Positions 8,117-47,715 of a stretch of 64,000 nucleotides of DNA are shown piece after piece. The notes under the pieces were generated by a model. The model was not told the origin of the DNA. It saw only the letters and a program-made list of their open reading frames with translations, and did no database searches. The translations under genes and the position numbers were made by a program. Origin of the DNA: a virus; the IMG/VR virus record IMGVR_UViG_3300034024_000020, positions 1 through 64,000 of that record; one strand, 5' to 3'. Every line of letters starts with the position of its first letter. Positions within the stretch are counted from its first letter, which is position 1.

Positions 8117-8492
8117 TTGTATCCACCCTTGAAGTAGATCTAGGAAACAATTATACAGCTAAATGGCGTTCCGACAGGAATATGGTTGAACTTCTAAATG
8201 GACAGCGATCCATCGTCCTAGTTGAAGAGCGCGATCTAGAGCGTATGATGGCTCTCTTTAACGAAGGTCGTGCACTAGAGGAAGTTAGGAAAAGGCTTAA
8301 AGCATGAACATTATGATACTAGCAAAAGGCACAACGGAGTCATTGTAAGGGACGACGCAGAAGAGCCTTATGTTTCAATCATCAAGACGGAAGATGGTAG
8401 ATATCTTTTAACTACTGAATGCCAGTATTCACTTAAATAGTTCTTGACTTTGCGACCCAATCTCGCTATACTGGGGCAACAAAGGGCGAGAT

Positions 8493-12996: not shown

Positions 12997-13060
12997 AATA
13001 GTTCTTGACTCTGAGCCCGGTTTTGTGTATAATGGGTCTTCATTCAGCGGAGATTAACCT

Positions 13061-13396
13061 ATGGATCGCGAAGCCGAGCTTAGGAGATTGCTTGCAGTAG
13101 AGCGGGATCAAGTCTCTCTTATTGAGGTTGCTATCGTTAACTGGAGTTCCGACTCGATGAAGTCCGTAGTCATCGCTACGCCTCTTCGGGCAAGAGGTAT
13201 TGCTACAGCTACGTATTTTTCGGGCAAGGGCAAAAAGCAAATGGAGAAAGCTAAGAGGGACGATCCTGATTTCTTTCTTATCATTCGCGATGATGGTATG
13301 CAGTTGAAAGATGCTGTTTACGAAACCTTTACTCCTTTAACGGACGAGAATTACGTTCAAGAGGTATATGAAAAAGTGGTTGCTGATTGGTCATAG
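13061..13396 (+). CDS. Hypothetical protein
   Basis: Promoter at 13005 and GGAG RBS. Confidence 0.65.
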   Translation: MDREAELRRLLAVERDQVSLIEVAIVNWSSDSMKSVVIATPLRARGIATATYFSGKGKKQMEKAKRDDPDFFLIIRDDGMQLKDAVYETFTPLTDENYVQEVYEKVVADWS

Positions 13397-13523
13397 AACC
13401 AATCAGCCAGCTGAAACTAAAGAGTTCACACCTCGGCCTCAATGCTATTGCACAACATGAGATAACAGAGCAATTGCGGCGAGCGTGCGGACAACTAGAA
13501 GTAAGCATATTTGAAGGATTGAT

Positions 13524-13838
13524 ATGAGTTATACAGAGGAACTGACTAAATCAGTCATAGAAGAGTACGAAGCTGACCCGTCTAGGGAGACAGTTGATCG
13601 TATTGCCGAAAGAATTGGAAAGACAACAAGGTCGGTTATTGCTAAGCTTGCAGCAGCGGGAGTTTATCAAACCCCGCAGCGCACTACGAAAACTGGCGAA
13701 CCGATCGTCAAGAAAGAAACTCTAGTCGAAGAGATCGAAGGGTGGCTGGAAATAGAATGCCCCACCCTAGTTAAAACTGGTAAAGAAGATTTAAAACGCG
13801 TTCATAAAGTACTACAGGAGATTTTCGTTGACGCCTGA
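13524..13838 (+). CDS. A2/D5-like DNA-binding protein paralog
   Basis: RSVIAKL...YQ...TTKTGEP motif shared with 1069-1437. Confidence 0.75.
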   Translation: MSYTEELTKSVIEEYEADPSRETVDRIAERIGKTTRSVIAKLAAAGVYQTPQRTTKTGEPIVKKETLVEEIEGWLEIECPTLVKTGKEDLKRVHKVLQEIFVDA

Positions 13839-14832
13839 GGTAATTGCACTCATTGCAGAACTCGAGAATATCGGGGAAAACAGAGAGGCTGAACCAGACT
13901 TCCGAAACCGAGCAGCAGCGCGTAGAGCCGCGAAGCTGATAAAGGAACTTTATGCTCAGGAAAGCAGCTTGGATAGCCAAGCAACTTAAGGAAGATAGGG
14001 AAGACGTATATGACGTGCTTCTTGGAAATATAACCAAACCTAGGAGTTTAGTTGATGCTGTTGCGGCGTGCGAGTCTGAATACGATTCCCTTCTCACCAG
14101 AGGAACCGGACGGAAAGATAAAGTGGATTCAGGATCAACTGAAGCGGGACGGTTTTCATCTTACTAGTGTTTGTATCCGTAATATCCTCCAAGGAAGCTT
14201 GACTTTCATGGATGAGTATACTGTAGGGTATGTTCACGAACTTTCAGAGAAGTGGAATGTCCAGTGCAACTAGATGGGGTTCCAGTCGTAGAGTATGACA
14301 AAAGCATTTTGACTGTAGCAATGGCTATGATTAACGTCACTATGGAAACCAATCAGGTTGACGCTCGCGCTTTAGAAATTGTATTCGAAGAAGCAGTTAA
14401 AGAGGCTCGTGAACTTTTGAAGGAATGTGTTTATGGATGATATCGAGCGCATGATTGACGATAGAGATATCCTCGAAAACAGTGTGATCTTTTATGAAGA
14501 CCAACTTAGGCAACTTCGTCTTGATGGAGTTCCGGAAGATGACATTCGTATTGTGCATCTAGAAAAATGGATCCACGAAGATACGAATGAGGCTGATGCA
14601 CTGAGTAGGCTAATTGCCGAAAATGACTAAGTTTCGTATGAGCGGATCGTTTGCTATCGAAGTTGAAGCTGAGGATTCAGATGCAGCTTATGACATTATT
14701 CATGAGAAAGTTCTACAACACTTTTTCTGGGATAACGTGCATGACTTCGGCCCCGTTGAGGAAGACTGAATATAGTTCTTGACATTGGGCTCGATTTTTC
14801 GTATAATGGACTCTCAAGACGGGAGATAGTTT

Positions 14833-15289
14833 ATGAAAAAGGGTCAGATGTTAGGGAACATGATTGTTCTCGCTACAAACGCCCACGCTGGTCAGTTTGA
14901 TAAAAGGGGGCCAGCCTTACATCCTTCACTGTCTGAAGGTACTACATTATACTGGGTCCGATGATGAGGAAATCCAGTGTATTGCAGTCGGACACGATCT
15001 TCTAGAAGATACTGATGTTACAACTGATGATCTTTATGAAGCTGGGATGACAGATAGGGTTGTAAACGGCATCCTTCTTCTAACGAAGATGCCCGGACAA
15101 TCTCTAGCGAAGTACAAGGAAGGCGTTCTTGCAAATGCAGACGCTCGAAAGGTAAAGAAAGCCGATCTGAAGCACAATAGCGACATTCGTCGTCTTAAGG
15201 GTGTAACAGAAAAAGACATTGCACGTAACGGTCGTTACATGTAGTTTTACGCAGAAATTGAAGCAAAGGAAGCTGAAGAAAATGTTTGA
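14833..15289 (+). pseudogene. HD-domain (RelA/SpoT hydrolase-like) gene with a +1 frameshift and an in-frame TAG
   Basis: AHAGQFDK in one frame; GGQPYILH...HDLLEDT...KKADLKHN in the +1 frame (extra A in GATAAAAGGGGG at 14899-14910); TAG at 15242-15244 with open continuation to TGA at 15289. Confidence 0.7.
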
Positions 15290-16504
15290 AGAAATTATGG
15301 AATCCTTTAACGGTCCTGAAATTGAATATGAGGGCACATATACCCCTAGAGCTCCAATTGATGTGCAGATGGTAGCTGAAGCTCTTGAGCCCGGCTCTCC
15401 GGAAGATATCTCTAGCAATTCTCTTTACCTTGAAGCTGAAGAGGTCGAAGAAATCCGAGAGATCGCAGCCAGCTTCGCTTAAAATAGTTCTTGACATTGT
15501 CCTCGGTTTTTCATATAATGGGGGACAACGAAAGGAAAGCGGCATGACAGATCGAGAAGCGCTTGAATACGAAATTGAAGACGCTATGTTCGAACTTAGT
15601 GATGCTGAGAGTACTCTTTATCGTTTGGAAGACGAAGGTTTAGAGGGTACTGACGAGTTTGACGAAGCTGAGCGCGACGTTTATAATGCAGAAAATCATC
15701 TTGCTTATCTGCAAAGTTTGAGGTCTGAACATGACAGCGAGTGAGCAAGCACAGGAAATTGGAAGCCTGTTAGGTCATGACGCTGTTGTGGCTCTTAGAT
15801 TCTGGACTTTCTGTAGTGATATGGAAAAGTCAAGTGATCCTAGAGCTAGAGAGTTCCTTAAAGGTTTGGATCAAGTTTATAGAGTTCTGAAATTGATCAA
15901 AACTGAATAAAGTTCTTGACTTTGATCTCAGATTTTCGTATAATGGGTTATCAAAAGCGGATAGCGGGCAATTCACGGAGTTGTCGCAGTTCACCGACTT
16001 AGAGGCGCAGACTTAGTCGCTCTGCTTAATGAAAAGGACTATAAATCGCCTCCTTTATATCTCGGCTAAAGTCCTTAATTGTGAATAATAACCGAGATTA
16101 AGGGGTGCACTACTTAGGTGCTTAATGTGTCATAATGAGGATGTACGCCCCACTATAAATATGGTCTCGGACTGTAAAGGGAACGACGGAATATCAACCA
16201 TGTTCTGTCAATGTTCCAGCACTTTATGGAATGAGAGTAGATACCGCCAAGTTGGATGATGGAGAAGCCGCTGTTGCGAAGCCGTTATCGAGCCCATTGA
16301 CTTGGAAGGTCCCATATAGTTAGGGTGCAATGCGCTTAATGGTGTTTGCAAACCGCCTTAACTCTTTTTACCTGTGAAATACCCCACGGTCGCAAGCAGG
16401 TAGTTTATATCATATAATGTGTTATAATAATCTCGAGAGCACCAGCGGTTCCCAAGTCCGCCTAAGAAAAACCCGAGTGATCGGTACTGGTGCAAAAACC
16501 CTAA

Positions 16505-16575
16505 ACTATGTGATCCGTCGGACGGAACTCCCCTCTAAAGGGACATATAAACAGGTTCAACTCCTGTACATAGTC
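16505..16575 (+). tRNA. Embedded tRNA-like element, anticodon CTA (amber-suppressor type), no CCA
   Basis: actatgt/acatagt acceptor; tccg/cgga D-stem; tccc-CTCTAAA-ggga anticodon arm; acagg-TTCAACT-cctgt T-arm. Confidence 0.7.
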
Positions 16576-17484
16576 AAAGGGTGGGTGCACAGGAATGTGT
16601 ACGCAGATTGGACTAGAAGTCGCGAATCTGACCATATACTAAGACAAGGCAAATTCGCGAAGCCTCTACCACGCTAGAGGTATTAAAACATGGGTCTTCT
16701 TAGTACATAGTCTCGCGCGAGACAGAGGTGAGCGTAATTCCTCGTTCAAAAAGATCAGGGTTATGATCTGCCTCATTCGCGCAGAAATTGCGAGGCGCTT
16801 TAACCAGCGACCGCCAAAGAGGTCCGAGAAGTGACACATACGGTTATGAGCCGACTTAGTGCGGGACGTGGTTTGGCCACCACTATTAGCCCAAACGGAA
16901 TCGTGGAGGAACCCCGTATGCTACTGTCTATGGCTGAGTGCACTTGCCCATAGAAGTAGGGAAAAATGTCGCAGGTCCCAACGCCTGCCTCGGAAACAAT
17001 TTATGGGACCCTGAAAGGGGATAAGGTAATGCACAGTGACACTTGGTCAAAGCGGTTGCAAACGCCTCCAAGTCGGACAGGGTGATGCAATACTCACCGT
17101 TTGTGCCAGGGAACACCCGGGTTGCTATCAAACGCCGGACCTGAATTAGACAATTTTGATAGATTAGCCTAATCCCAAACTCTCGTTCTGCCGGTGTAAG
17201 AAGAACCGGAAATCTACCCTTGTAAGATCCAAAGGGCGGTGCTAGTTCTGACATAATTAGCCGCTGGGGTCCCAACCAGTGTAAGCGACGAAAGGACGCA
17301 AAGCGGTAAAGCGAGAGCTTGCAAAAAAGCTGCCGCAAATCTAGAAAGACGTTTCTAGTAATAGGGTGTGAAGTGAGCTAAGCTAGCAACATTCTTCACG
17401 CAGATATGTATACCAAGTGTGTCTAGAACCTTGGTGGATTGGAGCGAGGGGGGGCGACCAATCATTTCGGCAACGTAACGATCC

Positions 17485-17516
17485 GGGTGTGAAGTGCCAG
17501 CTTCACACCCTTTTTT
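17485..17516 (+). terminator. Intrinsic terminator
   Basis: gggtgtgaag-tgccag-cttcacaccc-tttttt. Confidence 0.85.
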
Positions 17517-17634
17517 GTGTTCGTTAAAAAAGTTGTTGACATTTGAGTGTTTTGGTGTTATTATAGAGACTGAATAAATCAGCCATATTCTAGTGCAGCT
17601 AATGTAGTGGGAACTGGCTAAGTCGGAGACCGCA

Positions 17635-17910
17635 ATGGCGCTTTTTATTGGTGGTCCAATGGATGGACAACGAGTTGAGGTAGAACCCTCACGCAATTAT
17701 ATACAAGTGGCAATAGAGAAGCCACTAAAAATTAAGGAAGAACATACTGTAGAAAGATTCTCTACTACAGTTGAGAGAGACCTCTTTACATACAAGGCAG
17801 AGATATTAGCTTGTCCAAACAAGCAATACACAGTTTTCATTCCTGACGACTATGATTGTCAGGATTTTATAGATCATTTAATTAGAGGGTATAGACCTAG
17901 TGCAAATTAA
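17635..17910 (+). CDS. Hypothetical protein
   Basis: FIGGPMDG N-terminal motif; GGAG RBS. Confidence 0.7.
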   Translation: MALFIGGPMDGQRVEVEPSRNYIQVAIEKPLKIKEEHTVERFSTTVERDLFTYKAEILACPNKQYTVFIPDDYDCQDFIDHLIRGYRPSAN

Positions 17911-18427
17911 ACCATTGATTCTTAACGAAAGAATCGAAAACGGTATAGAAGGTAAAGCGATTTTCAGTAGTGATTGTCACTACAGATATGTCCTAACTAG
18001 ATGTTGGGATGATTCTGCTTGGTTAAACATCATAATGCTCAATCCTTCCAACGGAGATGAGCGCATTTTAGAGACCACTACCAAAGGAGTCATGAAGCGG
18101 GCCCAAAAATGGGGCTATGGTGGAATGATGGTAGCTAACCTGTTTAATCTTATATCCACTGATCCTAAGGCACTAGCTAAATGTGATGATCCAGTAGGTG
18201 CCTCGGGTGATTGGGCTATTCAATACATGCTACAATGGGCTCGTAGAGATGATGAACCTATAGTCTGTGCTTGGGGTAATCATGGTAGTTTACTGGGAAG
18301 AGATAAGCAAGTATTAAAACTTCTAGAAGGTCATGAGCTCCAAGTTCTGGCCCTTAACGGGAATGGGATGCCACGTCACCCTCTTCATATGGCACATAAT
18401 ATTGAACCTAAGTCCTGGAATCCTTAA
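17900..18427 (+). CDS. DUF1643-family protein
   Basis: YRYVLTRCW, MLNPS, VCAWG, G.PRHPL motifs. Confidence 0.8.
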   Translation: MQIKPLILNERIENGIEGKAIFSSDCHYRYVLTRCWDDSAWLNIIMLNPSNGDERILETTTKGVMKRAQKWGYGGMMVANLFNLISTDPKALAKCDDPVGASGDWAIQYMLQWARRDDEPIVCAWGNHGSLLGRDKQVLKLLEGHELQVLALNGNGMPRHPLHMAHNIEPKSWNP

Positions 18428-18488
18428 TTTAGTTCTTGACACGCTAACCCAAAGACGGTATAATGGGACTCAAGATTAGGAGAATATC

Positions 18489-18893
18489 ATGTTGAATAAG
18501 GTTGGAGTTCTTGGCGAAATCACTGGCTTCTTCACTGAACGTGATAGTATTCGTGATTTCTTACAGAACCTTATTAAGAACATAGAGTATCCTCTCGACG
18601 AGCGCTGGGAAATCTTCCTAGCGGCTGGAAAGGATATTCTTGGTGTTGATATCTACGGTGATGGACACATTGATATTCTATCTCCTGATCTCACGCAGTA
18701 TGACCATTTTTACACTGAACGATACCAGACTCGAACTTACGAGGATATGTGGGAACAGATTCAGGAAAAGGTAGAAGACGCCAAGGTAGATCCTACTAGT
18801 GAATACTCTAAGGGCGCTGAACTTTGGGATGTGGATAAGTGGCGGGAAACCGTTCTAGAACATGGACATGCGGGATTTATTTATGACTGGTAA
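18489..18893 (+). CDS. Hypothetical protein
   Basis: Promoter at 18436; AGGAG RBS. Confidence 0.65.
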   Translation: MLNKVGVLGEITGFFTERDSIRDFLQNLIKNIEYPLDERWEIFLAAGKDILGVDIYGDGHIDILSPDLTQYDHFYTERYQTRTYEDMWEQIQEKVEDAKVDPTSEYSKGAELWDVDKWRETVLEHGHAGFIYDW

Positions 18894-19578
18894 GTTTCAA
18901 AGGCTTGATCTAAGCCATATCACAGGACGCGTGTTTGTCGTTGGCGATATCCACGGAGCCTTCAGCGCGCTTGAGGCTGAGCTGGAGAAGCGTGGCTTCG
19001 ATAGAGAGAAGGATGTTCTTCTTTCAGTCGGCGATCTAGTTGATCGTGGGCCGGAGAGTCATCGTGCTGTTGAGTTCCTAGACTACCCTTGGTTTCATGC
19101 AATTCAGGGCAACCATGAGGATATAGTCCTCAATATGGCTGGTACTGATATGCATAACCGTAATGGTGGGCGCTGGTGGAAGAAGCTAAAGTATTCACAC
19201 AACAAGCCTAATCACGTTCAGTTCCTTGTTCGGTTCAATAAGCTTCCGATAATTCTAGAGGTTCTACTTCCTTCCGGTCGACGTATTGGACTAGTCCACG
19301 CGGAGTACCCAGGTGATGATTGGGCTGATGCTGAGTATTATGCCAACAATCATTCGGAGCATTGTATGTGGGCGCGTATCCGTTATAAGGATGCGCGTGA
19401 CGAGCATGTTCATCGTCCACTAGATGGAGTTGAGCGAGTACCGCCTATTAAGGGCATTGACCATGTGTATTACGGACATACACCTTTAACGGAGGCTATT
19501 ACAGTTGGAAACCAAAGCTGGATTGACACCGGTGCCGTCTTTTCTGACGGTTTCTTTACCATCATCGAGGAAAAGTGA
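18883..19578 (+). CDS. Ser/Thr protein phosphatase (calcineurin-like metallophosphoesterase)
   Basis: GDIHG, GDLVDRG, GNHE, GHT, IDTG motifs. Confidence 0.9.
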   Translation: MTGKFQRLDLSHITGRVFVVGDIHGAFSALEAELEKRGFDREKDVLLSVGDLVDRGPESHRAVEFLDYPWFHAIQGNHEDIVLNMAGTDMHNRNGGRWWKKLKYSHNKPNHVQFLVRFNKLPIILEVLLPSGRRIGLVHAEYPGDDWADAEYYANNHSEHCMWARIRYKDARDEHVHRPLDGVERVPPIKGIDHVYYGHTPLTEAITVGNQSWIDTGAVFSDGFFTIIEEK

Positions 19579-22569
19579 AGTGATTGATGTAGAACTTAGC
19601 CGAGCAGAGCTAGAGCTTATCAAAGACCTAGCTAAAACTGCTATTCGACAGAGATTGTTTCCTGATAATTCTTTATATGAACTAGAGAAGTATATGGATC
19701 AGATGTTGGAAGAACTCGAGGATATGGAAGGTGAAAAAGTTGTTTGATTATTTTAACCGACTTCGCTGGGCACATGCCTATTTTGGTGCGGGAGAGGGTA
19801 AAGTCTCTCCGTTTGAAGCCCTTTATGTAATGGATTTGATTGATGCTGACACCTATCGACGTTTCGAGGGCCGTTAAACTTCCTGCTAAGTTTAAATACT
19901 ACAGGGAGGGAGTCCTCTATTATGAGACCGGACTTGGTGACGTTTTTGGCGTTCCCTTGGATGATCTCGGAAAAGCTACCGTAAATGCTGAGGAGAAAGG
20001 AATTCTTCTCATGCGATATATGAGACTACACAACGAGGCTATTAAAAATGCGAAATCTGATTGACAATGCGACTAACAACCCAGGTATGACTGTGCTATG
20101 TGTAGCACTGATCGTCCTTGCGATCTTCATTATCTATGCCAATTTCTTTGCTCCGCGCAGAGAGATTGAACTAGTACATGAACCCCGTTATGAAAAGTTC
20201 GGTAACTACGGAAACGGAGCCAACGAACAGGACGGTCGAATGCCTGCTGTAGGCGATGCTTTTAGCTCTAAGTAAAAGGAAATATAAATGCCATTTGTTA
20301 TTGTAGCCTTTCTAGCATTGATTGCTTACCCTGCGTATCTGCTTTATAATGAGATCGAGGAATTTCTAGAAGAGGAAAACATGAATTTTCGAGAATTTGT
20401 GGAGATGATGAAGCAGGATGCTCGATCTTAAGAATGTAATCTGGGAACTTAGGTGGTCTAAGGCAGGCAACCGTATTATCATCACAGAAATAGATAATGA
20501 AAATGTCTATTTTGAGGATATCTGTGATCGTGAAGATGTTGGCTGCCTAACCATTGATAAGTTCTGCAAAAACTATAAAGCAGTAGGAGAACTACAATGA
20601 AGGCACTATACGCTGTAAGCTATACTGAATACGAGCGAGGCTGGGGTCAACGCCCAGATGGAACCTCCTACCATAGGAGTGAGGAAGATGCCAAGGCGTT
20701 CACAAAACGTATTCACGGCGATAGAAGTGGTAGCGTGCCTGACGAGTATACTAATGCTGACGGTCCTCCACGTCTAGTAGAAGTTAGTGATGCATTATAC
20801 GATCATGTTCAGGTAGGCGGTAATTACTGGTCTACTATGAATAGTTTCACGCAAGCACGCAATTGGAGTGTGCTCAATCCGAAAGGTATGTAATGGCTGA
20901 TATTCTAGCAGTTGTGCTGACTATAGCTTTGCTTGGTAGCGGACTCTATTTCTATGTCTTTGACCGGCAGCCGAAATAGTTCTTGACTTTGTACCTGTTC
21001 TGCCCTATACTGGTCAGACAACGGGAGAGAATTATGGACCGCGAATTAGCTGAAAAGATTGCTTACGATTTGCTCGGCACTTGCCGCTCTCTAGCTGACA
21101 TTGCTCTCAATTATCACAATGTAGAAATTGATGATCTCTCTCATGAAGAAGAGGACCTTTTACATGATGTAGTTGACAACATTACATTCGAATGTATTGA
21201 ATGTGGTTGGTTTCAGGAGGCGGGCTACTGGAACACTGACGATACCGATAATGGTAATATTTGCCTAGACTGTAGGCCGATGGAGGATTAATGGACGACA
21301 ATGTAGAAGAGTATGATTTCGATGGGGATTGTGCTGTTGAATGCGAACCTTTGAGCGAGCGTCGTATGCTCATTATCAAAGTTCTACAAGGTGGAGATAT
21401 TCACGCTGAGGATAATGATGGGCAGATGATTATCGTTCGAGACGACGGAACCGTTAGTTCGTTCCTTCACGGAGATACCGATTGGGTTCAGGGGGAGTTG
21501 ACTGTCAATGGTGAAAACTATTGGGAGGGAACTGCTTGGGACGTTATCGGATATCATCTGGGTATGACTGACGGTGCCCAAATGGAGAGGGCCCGAGGTG
21601 GATCAACTCAGTAGAGACTTGCAGGTTGTATTTGGATTTTCCAAAGCAAATGCACTTTCAGCTGTATGGCTGTACAGAAGAGGAAAGTTAAGTCCGGAAG
21701 AGGATGATATGCTTTTCTATCTTGAGAAGAAGCCTTGGGATCAACCCATGTTTCGAAATAAGGATTTGCCCAATGTTAAACCGGGCATGGAAAGAGTCCT
21801 AGAGCATCTAAACTATAGGATAACAGAAGCGGGTGGAAACCCAGTATAAGAGGTACATAATTAATGCCAACATTTCTAATTGTCGTAGGAACTCTAGTTT
21901 TACTGATTGGTACAACTATCTTGAGGGGTATTACCCTTAGCGTATTGTGGGGTTGGTTTATCGTTCCGCTAGGTGTTGTTTCAATTGGCATCCCTGCTGC
22001 TATGGGTATCGCCATGTTGGTTGCCATGATGACATGGCAAGACGTGGTAACTCAGAAGCGAGAGCTAGGTGGGGCTTTCGGCGTTGCAATCGGACAATGC
22101 CTATTCGCACTACTAGCCGGGTATATTCTTACCCTGTTCATGTGAGGTTAATGAGGGTCTCGCTTCTAACGAAGCGGGGCCCTTTAATTTAGTTCTTGAC
22201 ATGTACCCCTCGGTCTGCTATAATGGGTTCATATCTGGAGATAAGTCCGATTTGCCCTATTAGGCCAGGTACATATAATGATAACAGTAACCATAAAGAA
22301 CCAAGGGGCTATTGAATTCGAAGACTTCGAGAACGCTATGGCGTTTGTAGAAGAGCATCCAGAGATGTATGCATTCGATGTTGAAAATTTATCACTATTT
22401 AGCGATGAACCCTTTGAGGGTTTGATTATAGCGGAAGAAGCCATCAAAGAAGTATTCCAGTGTGCTGGATGCAAGGTATGTGTAGGCTTCCATAGACGCT
22501 CTGATCAAAAAGAACTAAGAGTTAAATGTCCTAATTGTGAAGCAATCCATAATATAAAGGTTAAAGACG

Positions 22570-36762: not shown

Positions 36763-36833
36763 GCCGGTCCTATGGTAGGCCTGCGGCTCTCATAAGGCTG
36801 CGTGGGGGAGATCGTTACTCCTGACCGGTACCA
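36763..36833 (+). tRNA. tRNA-Met/Ile2(CAT), short D arm
   Basis: gccggtc/gaccggt; loop ctCATaa; CCA. Confidence 0.7.
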
Positions 36834-41357: not shown

Positions 41358-41434
41358 GCCCGATGAGATGGCTAGGTGAAGTCGCCTCTTTTACATGGAG
41401 GAAATGAGCGGTTCGAATCCGTTATCGGGTACCA
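41358..41434 (+). tRNA. tRNA-Val(TAC)
   Basis: gcccgat/atcgggt; loop ttTACat; CCA. Confidence 0.8.
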
Positions 41435-41439
41435 TTTTT

Positions 41440-41528
41440 GGAGTGTACAAGCAGCTGGGAGCTGTCTTCGCTTGGAAAGCGAAAGGTGCTTTAATTAGCA
41501 TCCGATTCGAATTCGGGGCGCTCCGCCA
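41440..41528 (+). tRNA. tRNA-Ser(GGA)
   Basis: Long variable arm; loop ttGGAaa; CCA. Confidence 0.8.
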
Positions 41529-44550: not shown

Positions 44551-44641
44551 GTGCGCGTGGCGAAAATTAAGGCAGACGCACTAGCTTGAGTAGCTAGCGG
44601 GATAGTATCTCATGAGGGTTCGAGCCCCTCCGTGCACACCA
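44551..44641 (+). tRNA. tRNA-Leu(GAG)
   Basis: Type II cloverleaf; CCA. Confidence 0.85.
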
Positions 44642-44838: not shown

Positions 44839-44973
44839 TTTCGACTGAAGACCTAAGGCAGGTCGCCACTGATCCGGAGATAGCTGGTTCGATTCCAGTC
44901 AGTCAAACGCAAACCCTACCCAAAGGGTAGCCGACAGGGTTGGAAGGATCGGCTCTAGTTTGCGATATTTTAT

Positions 44974-46721: not shown

Positions 46722-46803
46722 ACCCTTGTAGCCGGTTCAGGTTTCGACCCTGTTATCCGTAATGGAGCTGCAAATGTAGGTTCGACTCCTATCAAGGGTG
46801 CCA
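46722..46803 (+). tRNA. tRNA-like RNA, anticodon TCG (Arg), D arm absent, long variable region
   Basis: acccttg/caagggt-g-CCA; cagg-ttTCGac-cctg; normal T arm. Confidence 0.55.
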
Positions 46804-46849: not shown

Positions 46850-47715
46850 TCAAAACGACGGAAATAACAAGTTTGGCCGTATGGGGTCATTAGGGTAAGG
46901 GTGGCGACACCCCCAAAGCAGGGAAGCTTACATACCTGCGCTCGCAAGAGTCCATCTATACAAGCCTACATCACGCCCGAAAGGGTGTCTTCGTGAAGAG
47001 CGGAGATAGTCGTGAAGTGAGGTTGAGGAAAGAATTCTGGTCGATGTCCCGCAAGGAAGGCAGGCTGGAGAAGAACGGGGTAGTAGCCGTCTCTCAGCAC
47101 ACTAAACTCGCGAACGATGATGGTAAATGGTAGTGCCATTGTTCGATGCTTAGCGGCAAAGGGCTTCGGTGCAATTCAAACGGTTGGTGGGAGTCACACC
47201 CACGTAGATCGTGAAGAATGATTGAGTAGGTTTAGCAGACCAAAAGATAGCATAGGCGTGTTGTATTTCGTAGATTAATAGTCTGCGAAGCGACAGAGGT
47301 AGCACGTCTTGGTAAGTTAATGCAATTTGTTCAATGGTAGAACATTAGTCTATGAAACTGAGAGTGTTGGTTCGATTCCAACATTGCAAGCTATAAAAAC
47401 GCAAAGACTACCTCGGTATACAGCGAAAGTCATCTAATGCCGGACTAAAGAATTCGGCCTAGGAAAGCTCGCAAGGCAGACCTAGTTCATGGTAGATCGC
47501 TCATAAATCTCTTAGCGGAGGTTGAACGGCTCGCAAGGTCGGTGGGAAGGAAATCGTGGAGTAGTTGTATATGTCACCGCAAAAGCTAGCGGTATATCAA
47601 ATGAGCGATGATGTTCATTAGTGGCAACCCTGCCTCTGGAAACCTGATTAAGCACCTCGCAAAAGGTCCGCGTACGGTCAGAAGATTGAACAATTAATAG
47701 GTGTATTCTCAGCCT
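46850..47715 (+). ncRNA. GOLLD-like large ncRNA (~865 nt)
   Basis: Own promoter (46815); ORF-free; many GCAA/GAAA-capped hairpins; GAGTAG..AAAG..GGCGTGTTGTATT segment and 3' end GGTGTATTCTCAGCCT recalled as GOLLD-like; lies inside a phage tRNA array. Confidence 0.75.
47321..47388 (+). tRNA. tRNA-like element embedded in the GOLLD-like RNA, anticodon ATG
   Basis: tgcaat/attgca; gttc/gaac D-stem; ttagt-ctATGaa-actga; gttgg-ttcgatt-ccaac; no CCA. Confidence 0.7.

Follow-up and report, generated by a model that had tools for sequence, protein, structure and literature searches.

IMG/VR virus record IMGVR_UViG_3300034024_000020 represents a 115.7-kb phage genome, rated complete by CheckV, and its first 64 kb constitute the window analyzed here. 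The phage is Demerecviridae-like, with a DNA polymerase that shares 45-47% identity with its T5-like counterparts, and it carries T5-style early genes, about 35 tRNAs, a permuted transfer-messenger RNA, and a copy of the large GOLLD RNA. The window also contains a promoter-driven non-coding transcript of approximately 1.55 kb, and 560 nucleotides (nt) into this RNA there is a tRNA-shaped module with the amber-reading anticodon CUA (Table 1). An earlier, sequence-only reading of the window had offered three roles for the module: a conditional suppressor excised from the RNA, a processing signal, or a decoy displayed on a scaffold. Here, we describe the module, its host transcript, and the related RNAs of other phages. 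A processing signal or structural part fits the collected evidence best, whereas a role in suppression is unsupported.

A tRNA-shaped module in a large non-coding transcript

ARAGORN finds 37 RNA genes in the window and calls the module as a single gene spanning exactly 16505-16575 on the plus strand, with anticodon cta at module position 31; it stands alone, and the tRNA array (36-49 kb) lies 19.5 kb downstream of it. The acceptor stem (ACUAUGU/ACAUAGU) has seven perfect pairs and is followed by a two-base linker, GA. The D arm, UCCG(U)-CGG-(A)CGGA, has a loop of only 3-5 nt with GG inside it, the anticodon arm reads CUCCC-CUCUAAA-GGGAC with a C-C mismatch at its outermost pair (27-43), and the variable region is 6 nt long (AUAUAA); 21 of the 22 stem pairs are Watson-Crick. 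The discriminator base is C and the bases that follow are AAAGGG, so that no CCA is encoded. Both the cloverleaf and the outer helix (ACCCU/AGGGU) are present in the minimum free energy (MFE) and centroid folds of 16430-16600, and the helices of both persist in a fold of the entire transcript.

Table 1. Coordinates of the transcript, the embedded module, and the adjacent motif within the 64-kb window.
Feature	Coordinates	Strand	Evidence
Promoter of the giant RNA, TTGACT-17-TATAAT	15916..15944	+	11 of 12 consensus positions; the phage's repeated consensus
Non-coding, ORF-free transcript (~1.55 kb) hosting the module	15945..17516	+	Promoter, terminator, no PHROG match, folding z-scores
Three-way motif just 5′ of the module, twister-P3-like, without cleavage strand	16439..16494	+	Rfam 18.9 bits, E 5.8; second copy
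Outer helix, 5′ strand, ACCCU	16498..16502	+	Pairs with 16578-16582 in local and full-length MFE folds
tRNA-like module, 71 nt, anticodon CUA, no CCA	16505..16575	+	ARAGORN; phage-tRNA model R1, 23.7 bits; best Rfam tRNA-clan score 20.8 bits, below threshold
Anticodon loop CUCUAAA (anticodon 16535-16537)	16533..16539	+	Sequence and ARAGORN
T arm ACAGG-UUCAACU-CCUGU, with canonical U54 U55 C56 A58	16551..16567	+	Sequence; present in fold
Outer helix, 3′ strand, AGGGU	16578..16582	+	Pairs with 16498-16502 in both folds
Intrinsic terminator of the giant RNA	17485..17516	+	11-bp stem with 6 GC pairs, then T run

The cloverleaf is not a chance arrangement, because ARAGORN makes no calls on 6.9 Mb of dinucleotide-shuffled genome (60 shuffles), and model R1, a covariance model trained on 24 class-I tRNAs of the same phage, fits the module end to end (23.7 bits, E 3e-4). 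The presence of a tRNA-shaped module with a CUA anticodon at these coordinates is real, and ARAGORN, the sequence, and the folds agree with the earlier account of its canonical T loop, missing CCA, and outer helix. That account also termed the cloverleaf complete, which is correct for its shape and needs qualifying for its core: the T arm, U33, and GG are kept, whereas positions 8 and 14 are G and U (canonically U8 and A14), the 27-43 pair is mismatched, the D loop is unusually short, and no Rfam tRNA-clan model scores over its threshold.

Judged as a tRNA, the module is the poorest-scoring call in the genome. It misses the 29-bit gathering threshold of the canonical elongator model (RF00005, clan CL00001), with no RF00005 match at E ≤ 10, and its Rfam score of at most 20.8 bits compares with 31-69 bits for the tRNAs of the array; the array tRNAs of this phage and three relatives taken together score 29-69 bits and all pass the threshold. 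With R1, the 24 training tRNAs score 45-73 bits. Approximately 32 of the 35 other ARAGORN tRNA calls have an encoded CCA, usually with a T run after it, and no CCA-adding enzyme (PF01743) was found in the phage genome. The module is not a duplicate of an array tRNA, as the best identity (0.64) is at background level. Within the array itself R1 gives several sub-threshold tRNA-like matches of 21-27 bits (36763-36830, 44551-44638, 44841-44907, and 46722-46800) that ARAGORN does not call and which may be pseudo-tRNAs.

An anticodon loop of this sequence is also found in tRNA-Pyl, as the sequence-only reading pointed out. A tRNA-Pyl has a non-canonical T loop, a 6-bp anticodon stem, a 3-nt variable loop, and a single base separating the acceptor stem from the D stem. 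In the module the anticodon stem has five pairs at most (one of them mismatched), the variable region is 6 nt long, the linker is GA, and the T loop is a canonical UUCAACU; together with the lack of PylS, this led us to reject a tRNA-Pyl identity. For PylS (TIGR02367), the earlier observation that no pyl genes are visible in the window now extends to the complete phage genome, in which this synthetase was not found.

The embedding of the module in a giant RNA is likewise borne out, with a promoter and terminator of its own and no family-matched open reading frame (ORF) between them; the small ORFs in this interval match no PHROG family. Folding z-scores relative to shuffles are -4 to -5.7 for 16350-16800, the segment of the transcript with the strongest structure and the one that contains the module. 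The promoter consensus AGTTCTTGAC-N17-TATAATGGG occurs at at least 17 other plus-strand sites (e.g. 14765, 28759, 35555, 45141, and 46805), and the same repeated consensus precedes genes, tRNA blocks, and the giant RNA.

Rfam searches of 13000-20000 at E ≤ 10 give only three weak partial or chance-level matches within the transcript – tRNA-Sec on the module (20.8 bits, E 1.8), twister-P3 (18.9 bits), and CTV_rep_sig at 16175-16216 (11.7 bits) – and a fourth, snoZ165 at 14646-14736, is upstream of the transcription unit. Neither GOLLD nor ROOL is matched in this region, and the host RNA was rejected as a member of either. No HDV-like or hammerhead ribozyme motif was found there downstream of the module, nor was any evident by eye. 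DNA searches with a 2-kb region returned no match among INPHARED phages and nothing significant in five related IMG/VR records, and the neighboring protein encoded at 17900-18427 has no close relative in IMG/VR.

The three-way motif immediately 5′ of the module has a second copy at genome positions 113350-113399, outside the window. All three helices carry compensatory changes between the copies (e.g. GCACCA/UGGUGC to GGGCCG/CGGCCC, and CCGA/UCGG to GCGA/UCGC), with no change in the loops UUCCCAAGU, GUGA, and UAC. It was not found at the other loci examined or, by a strict pattern, in genome contigs. The P3 and P4 helices, the L4 loop, and the 'AC' of twister-P3 are present, but a 5-nt stretch takes the place of the 26-nt P1/cleavage segment (GNRA-capped hairpin), and the score of 18.9 bits compares with a threshold of 39.9 bits (RF03154). 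It is a real structured motif, and is not called a ribozyme because the twister P1 and scissile site are absent.

Related RNAs and other embedded tRNA-shaped elements

Three long relatives of the phage were reached via the DNA polymerase and a conserved neighboring protein, and only four related RNAs were found. The window RNA has patchy similarity to RNAs in three relatives. In the complete relative G001 (115 kb) there is a syntenic, promoter-driven, ORF-free tract of approximately 2 kb (L078:1735-3650), sharing with the window RNA a 119-nt block (window 16818-16936; 65% identity, E 1e-6). Two modules in this tract are called by ARAGORN, one with the loop AUUUAAA (anticodon UUA) and a second with C33 and anticodon UAU. 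The tract contains five T-loop motifs within 1 kb, and looks like a chain of tRNA-like modules.

An 83-kb contig (L128) has a 5′ hairpin and a 3′ block in common with the window RNA, and its hand-parsed tRNA-like arrangement has an 8-nt loop, CUCUUAAA, and scores 15.8 bits. A third RNA, from a metagenome (L203), was reached by scanning for the 5′ motif, a pattern that yields one viral and one metagenomic relative. Over the first 100 nt this RNA shares 88% identity with that of the window; the two are not alignable beyond about 55 nt. The L203 module is a good tRNA-Lys(CUU), scoring 45 bits with Rfam, and its loop, CUCUUAA, differs from the CUCUAAA of the window by one substitution, at position 36. 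At the corresponding locus, the relatives G002 and G003 lack the RNA. Pattern scans with AGAGNTCCGAGAAGTG, GCGGTTCCCAAGTCCGCC, and a T-arm pattern gave only chance matches or unrelated tRNAs, and in none of 80 viral loci do the neighbors of the HD-hydrolase gene (described below) include a related RNA. The four loops CUCUAAA, AUUUAAA, CUCUUAA, and CUCUUAAA are all Lys-type or one step away from it, and are not conserved. The modules of the related RNAs are counterparts by context rather than proven orthologues.

tRNAs are reported to be embedded in the variable linker of GOLLD (bioRxiv 10.1101/2024.12.08.627333; PMC12990946), where they may be exposed or stored, and an 'inhibited storage' idea has been proposed for them (PMC12990946). 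GOLLD (RF02032) resembles the RNA described here: each is a giant non-coding RNA with its own promoter, comes from a tRNA-rich phage, and has a tRNA-shaped insert. The GOLLD of the window is full-length (47251-47715; 156.9 bits), yet there is no BLAST similarity between it and the host RNA, and its embedded tRNA scores 47.5 bits with R1 compared to 23.7 bits for the module, which is far more degenerate. This embedded tRNA (47320-47391) is well formed; its anticodon, AUG, is unusual, CCA is missing, and A1 and A72 appear to be mismatched. The tRNA arrays of the three related phages yielded no GOLLD at gathering score.

Phage T5 provides a second comparison, within the same virus family. T5 rnaX (AY543070, 40848-41566; 719 nt) is annotated as a misc_RNA, 'stable RNA with unknown functions', and has its own promoter. 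It also has an internal tRNA-like module, some 60 nt in from the 5′ end (L291:3932-4005, minus strand; about 41431-41504 of the record), which scores 35 bits with R1 and is called Ser-ACU by ARAGORN. The two RNAs are alike in being promoter-driven with an internal tRNA-like module, but RNAX is shorter, has its module much closer to the 5′ end, and is abutted at its 3′ end by a true tRNA-Arg. Because the RNAs share no sequence similarity (a T-arm word is all that blastn detects at word size 6), RNAX is an analogy to the window RNA, and does not indicate common membership of a family.

The RNAX module region is conserved in 509 T5-like records, in which it is annotated variously as tRNA-Ser, tRNA-OTHER, tRNA-Pro, or tRNA-SeC(tca). 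In an alignment of six T5-like RNAX sequences the acceptor strands are nearly identical, and the anticodon arm varies in both sequence and length; the T stem covaries (GUAGG/CCUAC, GCAGG/CCUGC, GUGGG/CCCAC). The acceptor stem has U-U and G-A mismatches in five of the six, with only that of T5 fully paired, and just three of the sequences, among them T5, receive a tRNA call from ARAGORN. The anticodon is sometimes of the stop type, such as the SeC(tca) of phage KKP_3822.

A further T5-like lineage (L136:7600-8730; also L137, L138, L168, L169, L190, and L195) has a lone tRNA-Glu(UUC) with CCA in an ORF-poor tract of approximately 1.1 kb. In L136 a hammerhead type-III-like motif (8225-8276; 23.5 bits, E 0.03) lies directly against this tRNA and takes the 3′ acceptor strand of the tRNA into its stem III.

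Stop codons and the amber anticodon

We compared ORF lengths under TAG, TGA, and TAA reassignment, and searched for stop-spanning homology by tblastn with the proteins of three relatives; both indicate that the phage uses the standard code, and stop-codon recoding was rejected. Reassigning TAG lengthens ORFs no more than does reassigning TGA or TAA, all of the extensions arise from TAGs at ORF edges, and the long genes of the late region (75-108 kb) are intact under table 11. TAG terminates 28 of 177 genes (16%), compared with 11-14% in the three relatives, such that it is not avoided, and backup stops are not enriched after it. With the poor score and missing CCA described above, these findings speak against the conditional suppressor suggested in the sequence-only reading.

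The tblastn comparison reveals only one internal in-frame stop in a conserved gene, a TAG at 15242-15244 in an HD/ppGpp (guanosine tetraphosphate)-hydrolase-like gene (14864-15289), located 1.3 kb upstream of the module. The relatives have CTG, ATT, GTT, or CAA at this position (L/I/V/Q), and homology continues in frame for 14 codons beyond it. The same gene has a one-base frame break in an A/G run at 14899-14910, and because of this second lesion it is most simply interpreted as a young pseudogene or a mistake in the assembly. That its TAG lies near a CUA module is a coincidence worth noting, albeit a weak one.

Phages with recoded genomes encode amber suppressors that are canonical tRNAs, and have many in-frame TAGs (PMC10879173). 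The module resembles these suppressors in being phage-encoded with anticodon CUA followed by A37 A38, but departs from them in failing tRNA models, lacking CCA, and being accompanied by a single in-frame TAG in a frameshifted gene. In an unrelated phage contig (L262:2454-2544) there is a class-II tRNA(CUA) with G1-C72 and an encoded CCA in a short intergenic gap, an example of the form that a plausible phage amber suppressor takes.

Possible roles of the module

We favor, with about even confidence, a reading in which the element is a non-decoding, tRNA-derived module of a large phage non-coding RNA, acting as a processing or docking handle and with its CUA anticodon incidental. The anticodon is best read as an incidental state, one substitution removed from a Lys-type CUU loop, rather than as a selected suppressor function. 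The module keeps those parts through which tRNA shape is recognized: the perfect 7-bp acceptor stem, the canonical T arm, and a GG-containing D loop able to form the elbow. The core used in decoding, however, is degenerate. By analogy with RNAX, it seems likely that the acceptor/T-arm half of the module has been kept while its anticodon arm drifts. Host RNase P and a 3′ tRNA nuclease would read the acceptor/T-arm half and elbow, with predicted cleavage at 16504/16505 by the former and near 16575 by the latter, and the outcome would be either a 1.55-kb transcript split into pieces or a tRNA-like body still held by the outer helix. Alternatively, the elbow may itself be a docking surface. Aminoacylation of the module is not expected. 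The mascRNA of MALAT1 is a tRNA-shaped, non-decoding module recognized by RNase P and RNase Z, at the 3′ end of a long eukaryotic RNA. Its likeness to the module is an analogy of mechanism; the module here is internal and its cleavage is predicted.

Several observations weigh against a non-decoding handle. RNase P cleavage is presumed, and the pairing of leader to trailer in the outer helix makes a non-ideal substrate for this enzyme. All four stems are almost perfect, and a neutral relic would not keep such stems for long. Identities among the modules of the related RNAs are 0.61-0.67, against a background 95th percentile of 0.67, so that their orthology is not demonstrable; the sequence-only reading had held free variation of the anticodon among homologs, together with a module that is never excised or charged, to be contrary to a suppressor, and the loops do differ (CUU, UUA, UAU with C33, and an 8-nt loop), but the argument is weakened to the same extent. 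Nonsense anticodons occur in two of the four or five related modules (CUA here and UUA in G001), both with the suppression-favoring A37 A38, an excess over random anticodons with p of roughly 0.01-0.1 depending on the model. Finally, the sole in-frame stop in a conserved gene is a TAG, with in-frame homology beyond it.

The two nonsense anticodons lend a little weight to a rival reading, a stored amber suppressor that would be released by RNase P and RNase Z, receive CCA from the host, be charged – perhaps by lysyl- or glutaminyl-tRNA synthetase, which read U35 – and read UAG, with the HD-hydrolase TAG or host stops as its possible targets. We consider this unlikely. The CUCUAAA loop with U33, A37, and A38, the intact acceptor stem, T arm, and GG, the UUA module of the syntenic G001 RNA, the interrupted HD gene, and the inhibited storage proposed for GOLLD-embedded tRNAs (PMC12990946) all favor it. 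Set against these are the absence of recoding or TAG avoidance, the frame break in the HD gene, the G8/U14 core, C-C mismatch, and sub-threshold score, the lack both of CCA and of a phage CCA-adding enzyme, and a loop that is not conserved in the related RNAs; moreover, TAA terminates 55% of the genes in G001, which an ochre suppressor there would extend, and no compensation is visible. A broader version, in which a T5-like phage RNA family stores latent nonsense suppressors (CUA here, UUA in a sister phage) that are locked by an outer helix, CCA-less, and conditionally released by tRNA-processing enzymes for timed read-through of the HD-hydrolase TAG, other such stops, or those of the host, is highly improbable in our view.

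The module may instead be a neutral relic, once a phage tRNA gene and probably one of Lys type, trapped in a non-coding tract that evolves fast and transcribed without a role of its own. This is doubtful but deserves some weight, in keeping with the degenerate core and low score, the mosaic character of the surrounding RNA, which within about 55 nt has diverged from its closest relative, the missing RNA in G002 and G003, and the other sub-threshold pseudo-tRNA matches in the array. It does not sit easily with almost entirely Watson-Crick stems and a canonical T loop, nor with the strong structure of the segment around the module, the strongest in the transcript, and similar embedded modules recur in GOLLD and in T5 RNAX, the latter with a covarying T stem. 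Anticodon nucleases are known to target tRNA-Lys, and T5 counters one anticodon-nuclease system with its own tRNA. A decoy in which a scaffold displays a tRNA-Lys-like anticodon stem-loop that soaks up a defense nuclease or a tRNA-binding factor would suit the Lys-type character of the related loops. However, nothing ties the module to a defense system, the loop is not conserved, and a Lys-specific nuclease would probably fail to recognize a loop changed at position 36, and we regard such a decoy as very unlikely.

GOLLD, ROOL, and T5 RNAX are so far without assigned functions, and embedded tRNA-shaped pieces are among the few clues that recur in them; this theme now reaches an unclassified 1.55-kb RNA of marine T5-like phages. 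Were the suppressor reading to be true, the module would represent a new way of gating suppression. Stop-reading anticodons in modules of this kind are not to be annotated as suppressor or pyrrolysine tRNAs, because in RNAX it is the acceptor/T-arm half that persists, with the anticodon arm free to drift, as is likely here too. Such caution in annotation is important wherever recoded genetic codes are called automatically in viromes.

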